In this document: piece after piece, positions 7,260-63,260 of the stretch
Layout of the letters: each line of letters starts with the position of its first letter
How positions within the stretch are numbered: position 1 is the first letter of the stretch
Assembly: GCA_033763135.1 (NCBI GenBank)
Contig: JANRKY010000286.1
Location: forward strand, 3,284 to 67,283
Reading direction: 5' to 3'
DNA: 64,000 bases
Source: Blastocatellia bacterium
Lineage (GTDB): Bacteria; Acidobacteriota; Blastocatellia; RBC074
Position numbers and translations under genes: made by a program
The notes under the pieces: generated by a model
The model's database searches: none
What the model was told of the DNA's origin: nothing
Seen by the model: the letters and a program-made list of their open reading frames with translations, nothing else

Positions 7260-7602
7260 CTGTAATTGAGAATTGACAATGGAGAATTGATAATTGGCAG
7301 CCGTCCGCCGCGGCGCCCGCCAACTATCAACCATCAATTGTCAAATTTCAATTCTCAACTATCAATTCTCGTCTCTTGCCGCATTTCTTCTCGCGGGTTA
7401 CATTGCCTTTCGCACGAGCAATACATCCCTTTACGAATCAGGCCGGCGGGAACTGGGAATTGAGAATTGAGAATTGAGGATTGAGAATTGATCGTCCGTC
7501 GACATCGATGTCGACGGCCAGGGCTCCACGATCAATCGTCAATTCTCAATTCTCAATTCTCAATTCTCAATTCTCAATTCCCCGGGCGTTTTCGAGGCAT
7601 TC
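7260..7602. repeat. AT-rich island of nested inverted repeats built from AATTGAGA/TCTCAATT octamers. It lies in the divergent promoter region between the AAA+ ATPase gene and the SDR gene.
   Basis: IR-A has imperfect arms at 7263-7297 and 7321-7370. IR-B has 37 nt arms at 7456-7492 and 7538-7574 with 2 mismatches. They flank a perfect 22 bp palindrome CCGTCGACATCGATGTCGACGG at 7496-7517. Confidence 0.85.
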
Positions 7603-8939: not shown

Positions 8940-9040
8940 GAGATTGCCACAGAGCCACGGAGGCACAGAGTCGAGAGCGGAGAAAATCCGGTTTTTCTGG
9001 CATTCTCCGCGCCTCTGTGGCTCTGTGGCCTGTCTCCCGT
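8940..9040. repeat. Long imperfect hairpin whose arms are tandem CCACAGAG octamers.
   Basis: The left arm GCCACAGAGCCACGGAGGCACAGAG... pairs with the right arm ...GCGCCTCTGTGGCTCTGTGGC. Intergenic, between the NIPSNAP gene and the TPP-enzyme gene. Confidence 0.6.
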
Positions 9041-10679: not shown

Positions 10680-11882
10680 ATGAACTTCGAATATACCGAC
10701 AAGGTCAAATACCTGCAGAAGAAGCTGTCGTCCTTCATGGACGAATACATCTACCCCAATGAAGCCGCGTATTACGAGCAGCTCAACACGGGCGAGCGCT
10801 GGAAGGTTCTGCCCGTCATCGAGGAGTTGAAGCCGAAGGCGAAGGCCGAGGGGTTGTGGAATCTTTTTCTTCCCGAAAGCGAGCACGGGGCGGGGCTGAC
10901 GAATCTGGAATATGCGCCGCTGTGCGAAATCATGGGGCGGGTTCCGTGGTCGGCCGAAGTCTTCAACTGTTCGGCGCCCGACACCGGAAACATGGAGGTG
11001 CTCGTTCGCTACGGCAGCGAAGAGAACAAGGCGCAGTGGCTGACGCCGCTGCTCAACGGCGAGATCCGCTCCTGTTACGCGATGACGGAGCCTGAGGTGG
11101 CCTCGTCGGACGCGACGAACATCTGTTCGAGCATCGTTCGCGACGGCGACTCGTACGTCATCAACGGCCGCAAGTGGTGGACGTCCGGCGCCGGCGATCC
11201 GCGATGCCGCATCGCGATCTTCATGGGAAAGACCGATGTCACCGCGCCGACCCACAAGCAGCAGTCGATGATCCTCGTGCCGATGGACGCGCCGGGCGTG
11301 AAGGTCATGCGCATGCTCAATGTTTTCGGCTATGACGATGCGCCGCACGGCCACGCGGAGGTCCTCTTCGAGAACGTCCGCGTCCCGGCCGGAAACATTC
11401 TTCTCGGAGAGGGGCGCGGTTTCGAGATCGCCCAGGGGCGGCTCGGTCCCGGCCGCATCCACCACTGCATGCGCACGATCGGACTCGCTGAACGCTCGCT
11501 CGAAGCGATGTGCAAACGTGTCAAGCATCGCGTCGCGTTCGGAAAGACGATCGCCGAGCAGGGGACCATCCGCGCGGACATCGCCGCCTGCCGCATCGAG
11601 ATCGAACAGGCGCGCCTGCTGACCCTCAAGGCCGCCTATATGATGGACACCGTCGGCAACAAGGTCGCCCGCGCCGAGATCGCCATGATCAAGGTCGTCG
11701 CTCCCAACATGGCGCTTCGCGTCATCGATCGCGCGCTTCAGGCGCACGGCGGCGGCGGCGTCAGCCAGGACTTCCATCTGGCCAGCGCCTGGTCGCATGC
11801 CCGCACCCTGCGCCTCGCCGACGGACCGGACGAGGTCCATCGCGAGACCATCGCCAAACTCGAATTGAAGAAGTACGAGTAG
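10680..11882 (+). CDS. Acyl-CoA dehydrogenase (ACAD10/11-like, FadE family).
   Basis: 400 aa. [13 protein letters not shown] and the C-terminal catalytic region are typical of the ACAD fold. AAGGAG RBS. Confidence 0.85.
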
Positions 11883-11965
11883 GGACAGGCCCCCGTGCCT
11901 GTCCTCGAATTGAAGAAGTACGAGCAGGGACAGGCCCCCGTGCCTGTCCCCGCGTCTCCCCGTCC
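11862..11965 (+). repeat. Tandem ~45 bp duplication of the ACAD gene's last codons, each copy followed by a GGACAGGC-CCCCGT-GCCTGTCC hairpin.
   Basis: CTCGAATTGAAGAAGTACGAG[T/C]AGGGACAGGCCCCCGTGCCTGTCC occurs twice in direct repeat. The first copy carries the TAG stop. Confidence 0.6.
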
Positions 11966-16835: not shown

Positions 16836-17777
16836 TCACGAAAGCGAGTCGAGCAGGGAGCGCATGGCCTGCGGCATCGGTGCGTTGAAGATCATCGGCT
16901 GCCCCGTCGCCGGGTGCTTCAACTCCAGCCGCGAAGCGTGCAGTTGATGATGTTTTAGGCGAAGGGCGCCGGCCAGTTCGTCCGCGGCGCCCTTGTAGAA
17001 AGGATCGCCGACGATTGCGTGGCCGATCAGCTGGCAGTGGATGCGAAGCTGGTGGGTGCGGCCGGTGAGCGGTTCGAGTTCGAGAAGCGTGTGGTTCGCG
17101 TACCGGGTTCGCACCTTGTAGCGGGTCTGGGCCGGCCGGGTCTCCTTGCCCTCGCGCATCACGCGCCAGTGGGGAAAGATCGCCGGATCGAAGCCGATCG
17201 GCGCGTCGATCTCGCCCTCGCTCGTCGCCACGCGTCCGCAGACCAGCGCCTGATAGAACTTCTTCACCCAGCGCTCGCGGAAGTGTTTGGAGAGCGTACG
17301 ATGGGCCCGCAGCGTCTTGGCGATGATGATCACCCCGGAAGTGTTCCGATCCAGCCGGTGCACCAGCCCCGGACGAATCGCCTCGCCGCTCGATTGCCAG
17401 AAATGCCAGGCCAGGGCATTCATCAGCGTCCCCGATTTCTCGCGGCCCGACGGGTGAACCAGCAGCCCGACCTGTTTGTTGAGGACGATGATCTCCGCAT
17501 CCTCGTGCAGCACCTCGAGCGGAATCGCCTCCGGCGTCCCCGAGGACTTCTCCGCCGCGAACAGCTTCACCGAGACGCGGTCGTCCGGCCGCAGGCGCGC
17601 GCCCTTCAGCGAATTCGCGCCGTTCACCAGCGCATCGCCCTCCGCAATCAGGCGGCGAATCCGCGTCAGACTGACCTTCGGCAGTTTTCCGGCGATGAAC
17701 TCGTCGAGCCGCGGCTTGCCCTCCGCGACCGTGAATTCGAAGCTCAATCGTTCGGGATCGATCTCGGGCTCAGCCAT
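16836..17777 (-). CDS. RluA-family pseudouridine synthase.
   Basis: Catalytic motif VHRLDRNTSGVIIIAK. N-terminal S4-like domain. Confidence 0.85.
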   Translation of the reverse strand: MAEPEIDPERLSFEFTVAEGKPRLDEFIAGKLPKVSLTRIRRLIAEGDALVNGANSLKGARLRPDDRVSVKLFAAEKSSGTPEAIPLEVLHEDAEIIVLNKQVGLLVHPSGREKSGTLMNALAWHFWQSSGEAIRPGLVHRLDRNTSGVIIIAKTLRAHRTLSKHFRERWVKKFYQALVCGRVATSEGEIDAPIGFDPAIFPHWRVMREGKETRPAQTRYKVRTRYANHTLLELEPLTGRTHQLRIHCQLIGHAIVGDPFYKGAADELAGALRLKHHQLHASRLELKHPATGQPMIFNAPMPQAMRSLLDSLS

Positions 17778-18246
17778 GATTTCTCGAACTCCGGACCAGC
17801 AGCACGATCAGCACGAGCGCCGCGATCATATCGAACGACATCAGCCCCACCGAGACCCGATGCAACATGTCAAAAGTGATCTTCGCCGGGTCGCTCGCCG
17901 GGAGCGCCGCGATCCCCTCGCCGAACTGCAGCCGGATTCCGTGCAGCCGGTTCGAGACATAAAATCGCGAGATTGCCATCGACGCGACCATCATCGCCAG
18001 CGCGATCAGCTCGAACAGAAAGCGCCGTCGGTTTTGCTCGCGCGAAAAGAGCAGCAGCACGATCAGCAGCAGCCCGAGCCCCATCCCGATGAATTCCGTC
18101 GCCGCCAGATTGCGCGAGACGACGTTGCCCGCCAGATGCTGCAACGGCAGAACCGAGAAGGCCACCGGCGCGACGATGAAGCTGAAATAGCACATCACCC
18201 CGAACCAGAACCCCAGAATCGCCACTCGTATCTTGTCGGATGTCAT
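17770..18246 (-). CDS. Small integral membrane protein (about 4 transmembrane helices, possibly DUF4149-like). Its start forms an ATGA overlap with the stop of the upstream DUF309 gene.
   Basis: The internal start MTSDKIRVAILGFWFGVMCYF is preferred. The longer ORF upstream is a GC-rich low-complexity artefact. Confidence 0.5.
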   Translation of the reverse strand: MTSDKIRVAILGFWFGVMCYFSFIVAPVAFSVLPLQHLAGNVVSRNLAATEFIGMGLGLLLIVLLLFSREQNRRRFLFELIALAMMVASMAISRFYVSNRLHGIRLQFGEGIAALPASDPAKITFDMLHRVSVGLMSFDMIAALVLIVLLVRSSRNHG

Positions 18247-18593
18247 AATCGATCCTGCAGGGCAATCCGCGGCCGCGTCGCGGCGCCGTCGAAATGGGCC
18301 TTCACCGCGTCCGCGAACGCCCGCGCGTCCAGCCCCATCATCGTCGCCGGAAGCGCCGCCAGCCGCGCCTGCGCGCGCGCATGCACGCTCGCCGCTCCCT
18401 TCGCGTTTCCTCGCTCCCGGTGATGCAGCGCCGCCGCGATCTGGATCATCGCATGCAGAAACTCCCGCTCCGCGCCCTCCGCGCGCAGCCAGATCGTCTC
18501 CCAGACCTCGTGGCATTCGAAATAGCGCCCCTCGTTAAAAAGCGCGATCCCCTCGGAATATTCGGCGGCGGCGTTCATCTTCCTGGAACTCAT
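18243..18593 (-). CDS. DUF309-family protein.
   Basis: EGIALFNEGRYFECHEVWETIW matches the DUF309 signature. 116 aa. Confidence 0.65.
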   Translation of the reverse strand: MSSRKMNAAAEYSEGIALFNEGRYFECHEVWETIWLRAEGAEREFLHAMIQIAAALHHRERGNAKGAASVHARAQARLAALPATMMGLDARAFADAVKAHFDGAATRPRIALQDRL

Positions 18594-18606
18594 GATTCAT
18601 GCCAGT

Positions 18607-18730
18607 CCCACAGGTCCCATAGGTCTCATAGGTCTCATAGGTCCCATAGGTCCCACAGGTCCCATAGGTCCCATAGGTCCCATAGGTCCCATAGGTCCCA
18701 TAGGTCCCATAGGTCCCATAGGTCCCATAG
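18607..18730. repeat. Tandem 9 bp repeat (CCCATAGGT)n of 13.8 units that fills the rhodanese-to-DUF309 spacer.
   Basis: The units are CCCACAGGT, CCCATAGGT, CTCATAGGT, CTCATAGGT, CCCATAGGT, CCCACAGGT, eight perfect CCCATAGGT units, and a final partial copy. Confidence 0.95.
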
Positions 18731-18736
18731 CACCCT

Positions 18737-19069: not shown

Positions 19070-19345
19070 TTACTCCGGTTTTGTCTCTCGCCGCACCCGT
19101 TCGATCAGCGCGGTCAGTTGTTCCACATCGAGCCTCGCCTCGTTGAGCGATCGCCGGCTGGCCATATAGCCCTGCCAGTACTCGCTCTCCGCGATCGTCT
19201 TGACGCGCTCCTCGCCGAGCGCGCTGGCCAGCATCGCAATCAGAATGCCCGAGACCTGCGTGTGCTCGACATACTTCGCGATCACGCTATAGGCCAGCTC
19301 CGCCGACTCGAGATTCCATTCCAGTTCGGTTTCCGTTGTCTCTTC
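19070..19345 (-). CDS. Small hypothetical protein (~92 aa).
   Basis: Only the C-terminal part of ORF 19070..19918 (from MEETTETELEW) is compositionally protein-like. It sits in the same operon context as ygfZ and the rhodanese gene. Confidence 0.4.
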   Translation of the reverse strand, partial: EETTETELEWNLESAELAYSVIAKYVEHTQVSGILIAMLASALGEERVKTIAESEYWQGYMASRRSLNEARLDVEQLTALIERVRRETKPE

Positions 19346-19362
19346 CATGCTCTTTGTCGAAG

Positions 19363-20418
19363 TTATGCGCCCGGGGTCGGTTGCGACGCCGGAGGCGAAA
19401 TGAAGGGCAGATCGATCAGCCGCGCGCGGCCGCATTCGACCTCGCCGCGCTTCAATGTGAATTCGGTTCCGACGGTCAGATGATAGCGATGAACATACCC
19501 GAGCGCGATCGGTCGGTCGAGCGCCAGGCTTCGCACACTGCTCGTGACGACGCCCACCTTCTTTCCGTCCGCGGCCCAGAGTTCGGTTCCGGCGGCGGGC
19601 GGCTCCGCGCCCTCGATCAGCAACCCGCGCAGTCGTCTGGCCGGCTGCCCGCGCCAGTGGATGCGCGCGATCACCTCCTGCCCGAGATAACAGCCCTTCG
19701 TGTAGCTCACGGCGGCTTCCAGCTCCGATTCGAGGATGATGTACTCTTCGCCCGCGTCCACGCCCTCGCGCGGCGCGCCCGCCTCGATGCGCGCCACCTC
19801 GAACGCTTCCGGGCCCGCTTCGCGCGCGCCCATCGGCTCGCCGGCCGCGAGCAGCGCCGCCAGCGCCTTGTCGCGCTCCTCTGCCGGAACGAAGAGATCG
19901 AATCCCGCCTCGCCGCATCGGGAATGGCGCGCGATCCGCACCGGAACCTCCGCGATCGTCGCCGCGGTGATCGCGTACGGCGCGGCCTCCGCCAGCGCAA
20001 CGCCCGCGACCGCGCCGAGCAGCTCCGCCGCGCGCGGTCCCTGCACCGAGAGCAGCGCAAACCGGTCGCTCTCGTCTTCCAGAAAGAACTCGCCCGCCGG
20101 CACGAACCGCGAGAGGTTCTTGAAGATCTTCTCCCGATTCACCGCGTCCAGCTCCATCAGCAGGGCCTCGCCCGTATTGTAGATCCGGGCCAGCGCGGCC
20201 AGCTTCCCCTGCAGCGTGGGAAACGCCGCGAGCACGCCCTGGCCCGCCGCGAGCGTCTTCACGTCGTTGCTCACCAGGCCATTGAGAAACTGCACGGCAT
20301 TCCTGCCGCTCACGCGCAGCTTTCCCGCCGTCGAAAAATCGATGATCCCCGCGCTCCGGCGAATCGCCTCGTATCCGGCGCGCAGCTCGTCTGTATTCAT
20401 CATCATTCCGCTATTCAA
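19363..20418 (-). CDS. YgfZ/GcvT-like folate-binding protein (Fe-S cluster repair/assembly factor family).
   Basis: Signature KGCYLGQEVIARIH. 351 aa. GcvT-like fold. Confidence 0.75.
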   Translation of the reverse strand: MNSGMMMNTDELRAGYEAIRRSAGIIDFSTAGKLRVSGRNAVQFLNGLVSNDVKTLAAGQGVLAAFPTLQGKLAALARIYNTGEALLMELDAVNREKIFKNLSRFVPAGEFFLEDESDRFALLSVQGPRAAELLGAVAGVALAEAAPYAITAATIAEVPVRIARHSRCGEAGFDLFVPAEERDKALAALLAAGEPMGAREAGPEAFEVARIEAGAPREGVDAGEEYIILESELEAAVSYTKGCYLGQEVIARIHWRGQPARRLRGLLIEGAEPPAAGTELWAADGKKVGVVTSSVRSLALDRPIALGYVHRYHLTVGTEFTLKRGEVECGRARLIDLPFISPPASQPTPGA

Positions 20419-20500: not shown

Positions 20501-20947
20501 TCAGTGCAGCTTGAGATCGGTCAGCATCTTGATTTGGTTCAACCCAAGCGATCTGAAAAGGTCATCATTGGTGACGAAGGAGTCGCATTGCAGGTGAAGA
20601 GCCGTTGCGAGGTGGATGGCATCGGGGAGCTTCAGTCTTGTTGTGGCGCGCAACCGGGCGGCTTCTTCCAGAATGGGACGGGTGATGGGGATGATTTCGA
20701 CGATTGAGGTCGTTGTGAGAAACGCACGATAGGTTTGCTGGACAGGAAAATTCCCGGCTTTTATCGGGCCAACCAATACTTCCGCCAGCGTAAGTTCGCT
20801 GGTTACAACGAATATTTCGCCTCCATCCATCGCGTCCAATATCGGTTGAATCTGGGCGGCAAATTTAGCCATCCCTTCAATCGCATAGATGACCATATTC
20901 GAATCAAGATAGATTCGTTTTCCGAGAGCATTGCTTACTCGTCCCAT
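20501..20947 (-). CDS. vapC: PIN-domain toxin (VapC-like).
   Basis: IYLDSNMVIY N-terminal acidic motif and other PIN residues. Overlaps the upstream antitoxin gene by 13 bp. Local GC is lower than the surroundings. Confidence 0.7.
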   Translation of the reverse strand: MGRVSNALGKRIYLDSNMVIYAIEGMAKFAAQIQPILDAMDGGEIFVVTSELTLAEVLVGPIKAGNFPVQQTYRAFLTTTSIVEIIPITRPILEEAARLRATTRLKLPDAIHLATALHLQCDSFVTNDDLFRSLGLNQIKMLTDLKLH

Positions 20948-21162
20948 GCATCACGCTCCGCCCGTATGAATTGGTCCACCTCTTCCGGCGTTGAAAACAC
21001 TCCCTTCCCCGCACCGAAGTAATTCGCATAATTGGTGGTGGTGAGCGATTGGCTTTGTTTCTGTTCGAGAACTTCCGCGATCTGGCGAATTAGCCTGACG
21101 ATTTCATCGGGTCGCAGCAACTTCACCTGGTCCACAATGAGATCGAGTTGACTGGCTGACAT
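20935..21162 (-). CDS. Putative antitoxin partner of the PIN toxin.
   Basis: 75 aa. The 3' end overlaps the toxin gene. Acidic C-terminus FIRAERDAWDE. Confidence 0.5.
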   Translation of the reverse strand: MSASQLDLIVDQVKLLRPDEIVRLIRQIAEVLEQKQSQSLTTTNYANYFGAGKGVFSTPEEVDQFIRAERDAWDE

Positions 21163-27679: not shown

Positions 27680-27860
27680 AACGCCTCACGCGAAGGCGCG
27701 AAGATGGGAAGAGCCCGGTCTTCTTCGCGCCTTCGTTTTCGATTCAGAAGCCATGCGAGCCGCGGGATCGAAAAAAGAACGGGAAGATCAAGAAAACTCG
27801 GGAATCGCTTTTCTTTGCGTCTTCGCGGCTTCGCGTGAGGCCCTCTTCTTGCTAACTTTC
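27680..27860. mobile_element. MITE-like ~180 bp element with terminal inverted repeats (copy 1 of 2).
   Basis: TIRs CCTCACGCGAAG...CTTCGCGTGAGG. Internal hairpin CGAAGGCGCGAAGA / TCTTCGCGCCTTCG. The 47598-47800 copy shares the ends, the internal hairpin and conserved internal blocks. Confidence 0.6.
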
Positions 27861-35164: not shown

Positions 35165-35249
35165 AAATCATCCACGAAGTTACACGAAGAAACGCGAAGG
35201 GAAGCCTCTTCTTCGTGCCTCTTCGTGTGGCGTTGTGGATGATTTTTCA
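35165..35249. repeat. CACGAAG-family palindromic hairpin element (copy 1 of 3).
   Basis: The arms AAATCATCCACGAAGTTACACGAAGAA... and ...CTTCGTGTGGCGTTGTGGATGATTT pair. Shares its core with the copies at 38044 and 39965. Confidence 0.6.
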
Positions 35250-38043: not shown

Positions 38044-38135
38044 AGTCGACTCCGCAGAAAATCATCCACGAAGTCACACGAAGAAACACGAAGAAGAGGA
38101 TTCCCTTCGTGCTTCTTCGTGTGACTGCGTGGATG
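38044..38135. repeat. CACGAAG-family palindromic hairpin element (copy 2 of 3), lying between convergent genes.
   Basis: The arms AAAATCATCCACGAAGTCACACGAAGAAACACGAAG and CTTCGTGCTTCTTCGTGTGACTGCGTGGATGATTTT pair. Confidence 0.65.
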
Positions 38136-38227
38136 ATTTTTTAATTGCTTCCGTACGTCGCCACGCGACGTGAACGACTCCATTCAAAAGGCAAATTGCA
38201 GCCGGCGCGCCGGCTGCGATTTGCCTT

Positions 38228-39964: not shown

Positions 39965-40060
39965 CTCCACAAAAGAACATCCACGAAGGCACGCGAAGAG
40001 CCACGAAGATAGGACTTATCTTCGTGGCTCTTCGTGTGCCTTCGTGGATGTTCTTTTATG
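39965..40060. repeat. CACGAAG-family palindromic hairpin element (copy 3 of 3). About a 43 bp stem, between convergent genes.
   Basis: CCACAAAAGAACATCCACGAAGGCACGCGAAGAGCCACGAAGATA ... TATCTTCGTGGCTCTTCGTGTGCCTTCGTGGATGTTCTTTTATGG. Confidence 0.65.
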
Positions 40061-40069
40061 GAGGTTCGG

Positions 40070-43601: not shown

Positions 43602-45320
43602 TCAGCGTCGAACGAGCCGGAAATTGTCGACGACGAAATTGCTGCGGACATACCGGTTCTGATTTCCGACGGCGAAGATCGTGATCGGCTGGGCGCCGTC
43701 GGGGATGGTGAAATTGACGCGCAGCGTCGCGCGCTGTCCCGCCGGCGACGCGGAAGAGACGCCCGGCGCTCCGTTATTGAAATTGACTCCGAGCGTGGCA
43801 ATCGTGCCGATGCTCGGAATGACGTCGCAACTCAGTGTGTAATCCCCGGCCGGAAGCGCGATCTCCTGCGCGCAATAATCGACCAGCCGGCGCCCGTTGG
43901 CCTGGAACTTCAACGCATACGCGCCGTCGGTGACGAGCGACTCGTCGTTGACCATGAGGGCGCCGCCGCCCCCGACGAAATAGGTGTAGACCCGCCACCC
44001 GCTGTAATTTCCCGTCTCGAAGCTCGGATTGACGATCACGTCGATCGGCGCGCCTTCACCGCCCGGTGGCGGCGTCGGCGTCGGCGTCGGCGTCGGAGTA
44101 GGCGTGGGAGTCGGCGTTGGCGTCGGCGTGGGAGTCGGGGTCGGAGTCGGGGTCGGCGTCGGGCTCGGAACCGGCGTTGCGGTCGGGCTCGGGCTCGGGC
44201 TCGGGCTCGGCGAGGGGCCCGGATTCGGGCCGCGCGGGCCAATGCGACGGATGGTGTGCGTGAAATAGTCGCTGACGAAGATGTTGCCCTTCGAATCGAC
44301 GGCGACGCCGCCGGGGCGGACAAAGGAGGCCTGCAGGGCCGGTCCGTCGACATGGTCTTCGACGCCGTTGCCCGCGACGGTCGAGACATAGCGGGTCGTC
44401 AGGTCGAGCTTGCGGACCGCGCCGTTATGCCAGTCGCCGATGATGATGTTGCCGTCGGCGTCCCGCGCGACGGCCGTGGCGAGGAAGAACGACGCCTGCA
44501 GCGCGGGGCCGTCCTTCAATTCGAAATTGCCGCTGCCCGCGATCGTGGTCACCTCGCCCGCGGGCGTGACCTGGCGGATGCGGCTGTTGAAGAAATCGCC
44601 CACGATCAGATTCCCCTGCGCGTCGAGACAGAGCTGCGGCGCCGCGCCGGAAAAACTGAAGGAGGCCTGCTCGCCGATCCCGTCCGCATAGCCGTTGTAA
44701 TTGCCCGCAAGCGTCGAGACATAGCGGTTCACATCGATCTTGCGAATGAGGTTGGTGGCGGAATCCAGCACATAGATGTTGCCGGCGTCGTCCACCGCGA
44801 CGCTCGTCGGCCGCGCGAAGCGCGCGGAGAGGGCCGCGCCGTTCTGATTGCCGTACGCGCCGCTGCCGGCAATCGTCGTCACCGCGCCGCTCGGCGCAAT
44901 CTGCCGGATGCGGTTGTTCCCGTAGTCCGCCACGAGAATATTGCCGTTCTTGTCGACCGCCACGCCCGATGGGCCGTAGAACCGGGCCGTCGTGCCGATG
45001 CCGTTGGCGTAGCCCTGCACCCCGCCCGCGATCGTCGTGACGTTGCCCTCCGGATCGATCTTCCGAATTCGCGCCCCCCGAAAGTCCGCGACAATCAGAT
45101 TGTCATCCTTGTCGATCGCCATCCCCAACGGCGCATTGAACCGCGCCGACGCGCCCGGACCGTCCGCGTAGCTGCCCGAAAACGCGCCCCCCGCAAACGT
45201 GCTCACATAGAGCCCGCTCTGCGCCTCGCTCTTTTGCAGAGCTGTCATTGCCAGTATTGAAAGGGAAAGAATCAGGACGAGCGATACGCGGCAGGAAAGA
45301 ACTCTTTGCAACAGATTCAT
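43602..45320 (-). CDS. Secreted NHL-repeat beta-propeller protein with a (Thr/Ser-Pro)n linker and a C-terminal jelly-roll-like domain.
   Basis: Repeated NHL-type motifs (GIAVD, NRIRKI). Linker [45 protein letters not shown]. Confidence 0.75.
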
Positions 45321-45445: not shown

Positions 45446-45545
45446 GCGAAAAAAATGCTGAATGCTGAATGATGAACGATGAATCAAGAGGACGTCGCCG
45501 CTGATTCATCATTCATCATTCATCATTCAGCATTCATCGTTCAGC
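45446..45545. repeat. Long hairpin with tandem GAATGAT/GAATGCT heptamer arms. It abuts the mscS stop codon.
   Basis: GCTGAATGCTGAATGATGAACGATGAATCA ... TGATTCATCATTCATCATTCATCATTCAGCATTCATCGTTCAGC. Confidence 0.6.
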
Positions 45546-47597: not shown

Positions 47598-47800
47598 GCC
47601 TCACGCGAAGACGCGAAGGCGCGAAGCGGAAAGAGGCAGGTCTTCTTCGCGTCTTCGTTTTCGATTCAGAAACCCCGCGAGCCGCGCGGCCAGCGGGGCT
47701 GAAAAGAAAGAACGCGAAGAGGAAGAAAACTCGGAACTTACTCGTCTTTGCGTCTTCGCGGCTTCGCGTGAGGCCCTCTTTTTACAAACTTAATGCCCTT
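47598..47800. mobile_element. MITE-like element with terminal inverted repeats (copy 2 of 2).
   Basis: Shares the TIRs CCTCACGCGAAG/CTTCGCGTGAGG, the internal hairpin and conserved internal blocks with the 27680-27860 copy. Confidence 0.6.
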
Positions 47801-63104: not shown

Positions 63105-63200
63105 AGATTCGGACACAAGGGGAATGGACAGGATGAACAGGATGTTTCAGGATTCACAGGATTGTCCGTCAACGCCGAATCCTGTGAATCCTGAAACATC
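63105..63200. repeat. Perfect 38 bp inverted repeat with tandem CAGGAT(G/T) arm units.
   Basis: GGACAGGATGAACAGGATGTTTCAGGATTCACAGGATT - 14 nt loop - AATCCTGTGAATCCTGAAACATCCTGTTCATCCTGTCC. Confidence 0.75.
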
Positions 63201-63260
63201 CTGTTCATCCTGTCCATTTTTCACCGTCTGAATGTTGCCGTCTCTGATTCGGAACGGACG

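Follow-up and report, generated by a model that had tools for sequence, protein, structure and literature searches.

What does a tandem array of nine-nucleotide units do between two genes of a bacterial operon, and is the Met-Gly-Pro reading frame that it opens a product in its own right or a by-product of the repeat? The array lies between a rhodanese-domain gene and a DUF309 gene in a 64,000-nucleotide stretch of DNA from a Blastocatellia bacterium (GenBank assembly GCA_033763135.1, contig JANRKY010000286.1, positions 3,284 to 67,283), which was analyzed over its full length and is called the window throughout. We favor the reading, with a probability of roughly 0.6, that slippage has expanded the array from a member of a dispersed family of nonamer repeats found close to stop codons, that its open reading frame (ORF) is incidental, and that any effect of the array would be exerted through an RNA hairpin between the two cistrons.

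A tandem nonamer array occupies the rhodanese-DUF309 spacer

An earlier note on this DNA had described a 143-bp spacer filled by a 9-bp tandem repeat, and both observations are borne out. The coordinates give 143 nt from the rhodanese stop codon TGA (18739-18737) to the annotated DUF309 start codon ATG (18593-18591), and within them Tandem Repeats Finder places an array at 18605-18730 with a period of 9, 14.0 copies, 95% matches and a score of 224. When an 18-mer of two units was used as the probe, 13 matches at three or fewer mismatches were obtained against the 0.02 expected from shuffled sequences, and the array falls within the definition of a long simple sequence repeat, or minisatellite (a unit of 5-11 nt repeated beyond chance). 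The copy number of 14 is the value in the assembly of a metagenome-assembled genome (MAG).

The minus-strand unit is CTATGGGAC, and in the direction of the genes the spacer reads TGA-AGGGTG-(CTATGGGAC)x8-CTGTGGGAC-CTATGGGAC-CTATGAGAC-CTATGAGAC-CTATGGGAC-CTGTGGGAC-TGGCA-TGA-ATC-ATG. The array begins 6 nt 3′ of the rhodanese TGA, which matches the placement of its family within about 30 nt of a stop codon, and the family core AT(A/G)(A/G)GAC fits 14 of the 14 units, including the two GTG variants. The eight identical units are grouped at one end and the diverged ones at the opposite end, an arrangement that fits the recent expansion by slippage that had been proposed before.

The array matches a dispersed family of stop-codon-proximal repeats

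An exact 27-mer of three units, (CTATGGGAC)x3, was found at 114 loci in about 59 genomes of a species-representative genome collection. The carriers include about 22 Verrucomicrobiota, nine Acidobacteriota, nine Lentisphaerota/Victivallales, five Bacteroidota, four Planctomycetota, two Hydrogenedentota, a single Chlamydiota, a single Sumerlaeota and a few others, at least eight phyla overall, and a genome may hold up to 13 loci. The MAG DALYLB01, from a sister species of the window organism and the source of one of the junctions described below (L003), carries two further 27-mer loci, L094 and L110. The family arrays have 3-20 units, adjoining units are transition variants that fit NNAT[AG][AG]GAC, and copy number and arm symmetry differ widely from array to array. 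About 5 of the 114 matches are unrelated coding repeats, collagen-like or proline-rich (L015, L062, L092, L098, L116). A scan of viral contigs returned 10 matches, all of them collagen-like coding repeats, and is therefore of no use as a control for the non-coding family.

The members share a placement and an architecture. Up to a distance of 30 nt from an element, 56 gene 3′ ends were counted versus 8 gene 5′ ends, and the flanking genes, as approximately called, are convergent in 27 cases, tandem in 29 and divergent in 7, against an expectation of about 16:31:16. Inverted pairs follow the pattern (NNATGGGAC)n-loop-(GTCCCATNN)n in 43 cases and show the opposite polarity in 1. The window array has no GTCCCAT-type reverse-complement arm on its 3′ side, and about 55% of the family members are likewise direct-only. 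Among direct-only arrays the nearby stop codon is upstream and co-oriented in 21 and on the opposite strand in 15, so the ATG-bearing strand is not preferentially the sense strand. The closest parallel to the window array is L094, in which 13 direct units and one reverse-complement unit stand between two genes: a 3-keto-disaccharide hydrolase gene, whose stop codon is 12 nt before the array, and a DUF1501 gene about 30 nt beyond it.

No transposase recurred beside the arrays among the 114 loci, and all-against-all clustering of the array-flanking genes brought out only generic two-component and sigma-54 proteins. The library searched in full text, both for the dimer of the unit and for repeats of nonamers or heptamers in the carrier phyla, returned no description, and the family is apparently undescribed so far. 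Numerous family arrays stand at contig ends, which indicates that such arrays break short-read assemblies.

In the acidobacterial Centralia_MAG_134 (L012, L026, L041, L103, L114) the nonamer hairpins share a loop-proximal CTATAGGCGGA(A/G) as well as outer GGATGGGA/TCCCATCC edges, which suggests that these copies are related by descent, in the manner of a mobile element, and did not arise independently. In the Thermoanaerobaculia genome MFD12012 bin17 (L048, L056, L071, L072, L074, L082, L085) the nonamer arms flank an inner stem rich in G and C, CCGCCCGCCC...GGGCGGG, and the arrays appear to extend a stem-loop that was there before them.

The long array is absent from the same junction in relatives

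The gene order GcvT, 92-aa ORF, rhodanese, DUF309, DUF4149, RluA is kept in relatives. Look-ups of the exact DUF309 and rhodanese proteins matched no contig, and a 25-mer anchored in the rhodanese end and the first unit had 0 matches in metagenome contigs. The DUF309 protein is identical to an annotated protein of a Blastocatellia MAG (Acidobacteriota), and its nearest other homologue is 79% identical, so that the comparison is one between species. A protein-guided metagenome scan returned relatives at up to 62% identity, which were used to show tight ancestral junctions. Across the relatives, the gap is 5 nt in L005, the two genes overlap by ATGA in L006, and seven more distant relatives have either a TGATG overlap or a gap of 7 nt or less. 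In the sister species 18 nt separate the rhodanese stop from the called DUF309 start, with an identical sequence in four independent assemblies (L001-L004). The long array is absent from the junction in every relative examined, that is, from the nine tight junctions and from the sister species. Together with the remaining junctions of the window operon, all of which lie between −8 and +14 nt, the tight junctions of the relatives mark the 143-nt spacer as a lineage-specific insertion. The ancestral rhodanese/DUF309 junction was presumably tight and translationally coupled.

The sister species nevertheless holds a trace of the element. Its junction holds, in the corresponding place, a degenerate 38-nt hairpin of the nonamer motif, GGATGAGAC-TTATGG-GTCTCATCG-CTCCCATAA, with one or two units in the forward direction and then one or two as reverse complements; the core gATGAGAC-ttatgg-GTCTCATc folds as an 8-bp hairpin of −20.5 kcal/mol. 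The flanks of the two species align on both sides of the element, with TGAAGRGGGC on one side and AAGATGAANGCCGCCGCCGAAT on the other, which implies that the element is older than the split of the two species and has changed in size since. The site thus differs between species as 14 units here versus about 2+2 degenerate units in the sister.

In the sister genome the gene caller placed the DUF309 start at an ATG inside the mini-element (L001 3416-3460, and also in L002-L004), yielding MGLIAPINLKMKAAAEY. Annotation of start codons may thus be misled by the ATG-bearing repeat units.

Predicted RNA folding and the proposed history of the array

The sense RNA of the spacer is predicted to form a single long hairpin with interruptions, at −88.1 kcal/mol (z −5.9), a value that no sequence among 200 shuffles equalled. 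The prediction is specific to that strand, as the antisense RNA gave a z of −0.3 and the single-stranded DNA a weak z of −2.4. The array can fold back in spite of having units in one direction only because the block CCUAUGGG is self-complementary once G.U pairs are allowed, which would give a hairpin of about 55 bp. One transition away from this block stands CCTATAGG, a perfect palindrome that forms the apex of several family hairpins, for example that of L110. In an Rfam search of the window and of five family loci no match reached the gathering score, the only returns being two microRNA look-alikes below threshold (E 0.1 and 0.87); the search for tRNA and tmRNA genes found none.

We propose the following history. 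A dispersed element with the unit NNAT(A/G)(A/G)GAC sits just 3′ of stop codons in Blastocatellia and several other phyla, and the common ancestor of the window and sister species would have carried a short quasi-palindromic copy between the rhodanese and DUF309 genes. In the window lineage its 5′ arm would then have been lengthened to 14 units through slippage during replication, with the rhodanese-proximal end expanding last. In a polycistronic mRNA the resulting RNA stem-loop would take the place of the stop/start junction that was tight and coupled in the ancestor; it could shield the upstream message or act as a partial terminator of it, and could lower or uncouple the expression of DUF309, DUF4149 and RluA. 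Family membership, the absence of the array from relatives, the strand-specific predicted folding and the atypical codons come directly from the analyses; slippage, co-transcription and any effect on expression are steps that we infer, and the functional role of the stem-loop is suggested by analogy with repetitive extragenic palindromic (REP) elements within operons. Such elements lie between malE and malF of E. coli, where the stem-loops they form in the RNA influence how stable the message upstream is.

Several points weigh against this account. The array has no reverse-complement arm, whereas about 45% of the family members have one, and scans for promoters and terminators picked up neither a sigma-70-like promoter nor a canonical terminator at the array, the sole terminator-like site lying far from it. 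Only a single family array lies within the 64-kb window, and the further copies, at least two, are those of the sister MAG rather than of this genome. The absence, among direct arrays, of a significant preference for the strand capable of G.U pairing (21 versus 15) weakens the case for a selected role of the RNA structure. The gene contexts of the family are approximate, as they come from a crude caller based on third-codon-position GC content, and the argument that the family is not random is drawn from its several loci per genome, its shared architecture and its skewed phyletic distribution rather than from a comparison with arbitrary 9-mers. The unit could in principle have arisen on the spot, from the start region of DUF309, given that a more distant relative (L135) begins this gene with ATGAGAC. 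Nevertheless, since this unit is also present at unrelated loci in the sister genome, we gave a purely local origin less weight than membership of the family. Finally, the closeness of the ORF stop to the DUF309 start would also fit an upstream open reading frame (uORF) that relays ribosomes, which is considered below.

The Met-Gly-Pro reading frame

As had been noted before, the repeat reads ATG-GGA-CCT in the same frame as DUF309, and this frame is closed by a TGA (18599-18597) that is followed by ATC and then by the annotated ATG, so that the message ends UGA AUC AUG. Twelve ATG and two GTG codons fall in this frame, the first ATG being at 18728. The ATG is intrinsic to the unit wherever the unit occurs, and the Met-Gly-Pro ORF hence looks like a by-product of the repeat. 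Nor is the suggestion supported that the array is a stack of alternative start sites, as the unit is found at 114 other loci, mostly after stop codons, and in both orientations relative to genes. In the earlier note each ATG was said to follow a GGGA tract at 4 nt; the GGGA is indeed present, but at a gap of 3 nt, which makes a poor ribosome-binding site, and all of the internal AUGs lie within the predicted stem.

Could the frame nonetheless be translated? One possibility, which takes up the main idea of the earlier note, is that ribosomes terminating at the rhodanese UGA start again at the AUG of the first unit and proceed along the 43-codon (MGP)n ORF, melting the hairpin on their way, until they stop 3 nt short of the DUF309 AUG and reinitiate there, so that the coupling broken by the insertion would be restored and the copy number would tune its efficiency. 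The ancestral junctions, being overlapping stop/start pairs, imply coupling. Moreover, start codons occur in the array solely in the MGP frame, the rhodanese stop lies 8 nt before the first AUG, which has AAGGG 4-5 nt upstream, and a good Shine-Dalgarno sequence is missing from both candidate starts of DUF309. The frame also stops 8 nt past the end of the array, whereas the median distance in the family is 107 nt, and only 6 of 64 direct arrays have their stop within 15 nt.

On the other side, neither the ORF nor its frame relation is conserved: relatives have no array, the 64 direct arrays have no common stop, and in the comparable sister array L094 the ATG frame is out of frame with DUF1501 and stays open for 310 codons across that gene, which would be harmful if the array ATGs were efficient start sites. 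The codons are atypical of the genome region, CCT making up 2.0% of the proline codons and GGA 16.4% of the glycine codons in 30 long genes of the window. The start codons are buried in the predicted −88 kcal/mol stem, and identity with the DUF309 frame has a one-in-three probability by chance. In addition, the orthologous DUF309 start may be the ATG at 18578 rather than the annotated one at 18593, to judge from alignment; if so, the TGA would lie 18 nt upstream of the true start instead of 3 nt. We regard such a relay as unlikely. The proposal that the array was built as a translated leader of variable length is not supported, on the same grounds (relatives without the array, no common frame end, rare codons), and the comparative evidence does not support a designed leader peptide.

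Other explanations of the array

Alternatively, the (CUAUGGGAC)n repeat, as RNA or as DNA, might be bound by a sequence-specific protein common to the carrier phyla, which the array would titrate or position between the cistrons. The occurrence of one unit in so many genomes and phyla, at several loci per genome, speaks for such a protein, as does the fixed polarity of the hairpins, and the same idea has been proposed for the TAACTGA heptamer repeats (PMC4679880). But no candidate protein came to light, the genes next to the arrays having only generic two-component families in common, and the units vary freely by transitions within arrays that are themselves widely variable in copy number and symmetry. 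We consider this quite unlikely.

The earlier note had also raised the possibility that the array was, or still is, a Gly-X-Y part of DUF309, the TGA at 18599-18597 being a recent mutation or a sequencing error. The frames are identical; in the sister species an ORF that begins at an ATG with GAGGG upstream runs in frame and without a break through the mini-element into DUF309; and real collagen-like GPM repeats are encoded elsewhere (L015, L062 and the viral loci). Nevertheless, all 32 of the 32 DUF309 homologues are 107-129 aa long and have no long N-terminal extension, the codons of the repeat are rare, and the family arrays are overwhelmingly non-coding. As the array stands, the in-frame stop rules out isoforms of DUF309 that differ in an N-terminal extension: a change in the number of 9-nt units cannot shift the frame, and the TGA separates the ORF from DUF309. 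A disrupted extension is therefore highly improbable.

That the array or its copy number is an artefact of repeat collapse or expansion in a short-read metagenome assembly is scarcely credible, for although the source is a MAG and many family arrays stand at contig ends, this one is internal to a 105-kb contig, its flanks are unique and can be aligned with those of the sister species, and the perfect run covers no more than 72 bp, the remainder being anchored by variant units.

Features of the locus and neighboring genes

The features of the array and of the genes around it are collected in Table 1.

Table 1. Positions of the array, its reading frame and the surrounding genes in the window.
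Feature	Position	Strand	Basis and remarks
Full array, 14 tandem 9-nt units	18605..18730	-	Member of the NNAT[AG][AG]GAC nonamer-array family; Tandem Repeats Finder, chance test and family comparison
Units 1-8, identical CTATGGGAC, rhodanese-proximal, latest expansion	18659..18730	-	Sequence; zero-mismatch matches
Units 9-14, older; 4 of 6 with one transition (CTGTGGGAC x2, CTATGAGAC x2)	18605..18658	-	Sequence
Incidental ORF, 43 codons + TGA, MGPMGP...MRPMRPMGPVGLA*	18597..18728	-	Distance to the rhodanese stop 8 nt, to the annotated DUF309 ATG 3 nt
Small predicted hairpin CUGGCAUGAAUCAUGAGUUCCAGG	18582..18605	-	Minimum-free-energy structure; encloses the TGA and the annotated DUF309 AUG
Rhodanese-domain gene, 108 aa	18737..19063	-	Pfam; 6 nt separate its stop from the array
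DUF309 gene as annotated, 116 aa	18243..18593	-	Pfam; annotated protein P0001 has the same start
Second in-frame ATG, probable orthologous DUF309 start (MNAAAEY)	18576..18578	-	Flank alignment with the sister species; N-termini of homologues
DUF4149 membrane protein gene	17770..18246	-	Pfam; ATG overlaps the DUF309 stop (ATGA)
RluA-type pseudouridine synthase gene	16836..17777	-	Pfam; 8-nt overlap with the end of DUF4149
Conserved 92-aa ORF	19070..19348	-	No Pfam match; 6 nt upstream of the rhodanese gene; present in relatives
GcvT-like aminomethyltransferase gene, first of the conserved block	19363..20418	-	Pfam

Beyond the conserved block, a PIN-domain gene at 20501-21162 of the window (148 aa, Pfam E 2.7e-17) overlaps an upstream 75-aa ORF in the layout of a VapBC-type toxin-antitoxin pair. 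Its third-codon-position GC content is 0.57 versus about 0.82 in neighboring genes, which suggests recent acquisition.

Other repeats in the window

The window contains at least 10 intergenic hairpins whose arms are themselves built of short tandem units, with arms of 25-52 nt that are 71-100% complementary. They lie at 7263-7370, 7448-7582, 8946-9029, 27683-27841, 35165-35245, 38058-38140, 39965-40063, 45454-45541, 47603-47769 and 63123-63218, and their units are GAATTGA/TCAATTC, CACAGAG/CTCTGTG, ACGCGAAG/CTTCGCG, CACGAAG/CTTCGTG, GAATGAT/ATCATTC and ACAGGATNN. The hairpins at 35165 and 38058 have nearly the same arm sequence, with AAAA on the 5′ side and TTTT on the 3′ side, and look like a dispersed bidirectional terminator. 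In 10 of the 10 inverted pairs of 7- or 8-nt units (hairpins of the window and of L028, L050, L056, L059, L101, L103 and L111) the 5′ arm is purine-rich, with more G than C, and the 3′ arm pyrimidine-rich. This matches the 43:1 polarity of the nonamers, and simple stem stability does not explain it.

The cores of these units recur at loci that had been fetched for a different reason: CACGAAG in L040 and L063, CACAGAGG in L074 and L085, and TCAATTC in L026 (10-31). As the recurrences span Lentisphaerota, Thermoanaerobaculia and another Acidobacteria MAG, they suggest that a limited vocabulary of repeat units is shared across unrelated phyla. Among the tandem arrays of at least three copies in L001-L120 and the window, 49 have a period of 7, 20 a period of 8 and 200 a period of 9, the last count being inflated by the choice of loci with a 27-mer; other periods are rare.

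Two further repeats are of other kinds. At 11859-11949 a 45-bp unit is present in 2.0 copies at 97% identity, just 3′ of a gene that ends at 11882, and contains a small inverted repeat, GACAGGC...GCCTGTC. At 44070-44212 the hexamer CGGCGT, in 15-23 copies, is coding and gives an ordinary Pro-Thr/Pro-Ser linker in a 584-aa secreted protein.

Comparison with known repeat systems

Prokaryotic long simple sequence repeats with units of 5-11 nt have been surveyed before, and heptamers were the most abundant class in these surveys (Mrazek et al. 2007 via PMC4679880; PMC4060949). The window array resembles them in that a short unit is repeated head to tail beyond chance in an intergenic region, for which polymerase slippage is held responsible. 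It differs in belonging to a set of arrays with one nonamer across phyla, an association with stop codons and hairpins of fixed polarity, features that the surveys do not describe. A nearer parallel is found in the TAACTGA heptamers, which are shared by Beggiatoaceae, Cyanobacteria and Bacteroidetes and have been proposed to act post-transcriptionally; in the Guaymas genome they stand just upstream of start codons in the forward direction, with 1 of about 170 sets inverted (PMC4679880). Like these and the cyanobacterial STRR heptamers, the nonamer occurs as one unit at many intergenic loci of distant lineages with no evident mechanism of transfer. Unlike them it has a unit of 9 nt, lies mostly after stops, occurs in both orientations and often forms inverted pairs.

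The REP/BIME and REPIN sequences are dispersed extragenic palindromes concentrated at gene 3′ ends and between convergent genes (PMC3733652, PMC3116915). They also occur inside operons. A REP is a single imperfect palindrome of 20-40 nt tagged with GTAG or CGTC and linked to RAYT (IS200/IS605-like) transposases (PMC3733652). The nonamer family is like them in its palindromy and in its placement at gene 3′ ends; by contrast, its arms are tandem 9-nt units, there is no GTAG or CGTC in CTATGGGAC / GTCCCATAG, and the neighborhood of the arrays showed no transposase.

Phase-variable repeats of 5′ untranslated regions are known from Haemophilus influenzae (PMC12721329) and from the AGAT tract of Moraxella UspA2 (cited in PMC4679880). 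Those tracts lie between a promoter or upstream gene and a start codon, where copy number can alter mRNA structure and expression, and the window repeat has a similar position. Those tracts, however, have units of 1-4 nt, belong to surface or virulence genes and have been shown to vary between cells, whereas the present unit has 9 nt and its neighbors look like housekeeping genes. The Gly-Pro-Met frame, finally, recalls collagen-like Gly-X-Y proteins, and an identical DNA repeat encodes such proteins in Bacillus and in giant-virus contigs. Unlike those, the window ORF has 43 codons, uses rare ones, stops before DUF309, and has no counterpart extension in any homologue.

Implications

Taken alone, the array is a minor, probably near-neutral repeat expansion in an operon of poorly characterized genes. 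Its broader interest lies in the recurrence of one 9-nt unit at stop-proximal sites in dozens of genomes, both as hairpins of a single polarity and as self-complementary direct arrays. We offer, tentatively and as a proposal more likely wrong than right when taken as a whole, that the NNAT(A/G)(A/G)GAC arrays might be an undescribed class of sequence-specific elements, forming 3′-end hairpins of fixed polarity with a G-rich 5′ arm and spread or upheld by a mobilizing enzyme or a binding protein. This class would be carried by Acidobacteriota, the PVC phyla (Planctomycetota, Verrucomicrobiota, Chlamydiota and relatives), Hydrogenedentota and some Bacteroidota, and would have sister families with units of 7 and 8 nt such as GAATTGA, CACGAAG and CACAGAG. 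In that case the window copy would be an expanded member whose RNA structure, alone or together with a relay uORF, now governs expression across the junction of rhodanese and DUF309.

If these families are a general feature, they would also be a source of mis-annotated gene starts, with ORFs extended into ATG-bearing units as in the sister species, besides breaking short-read assemblies. Moreover, the 7-, 8- and 9-nt families could explain how transcripts are ended or stabilized in phyla that largely lack canonical terminators.

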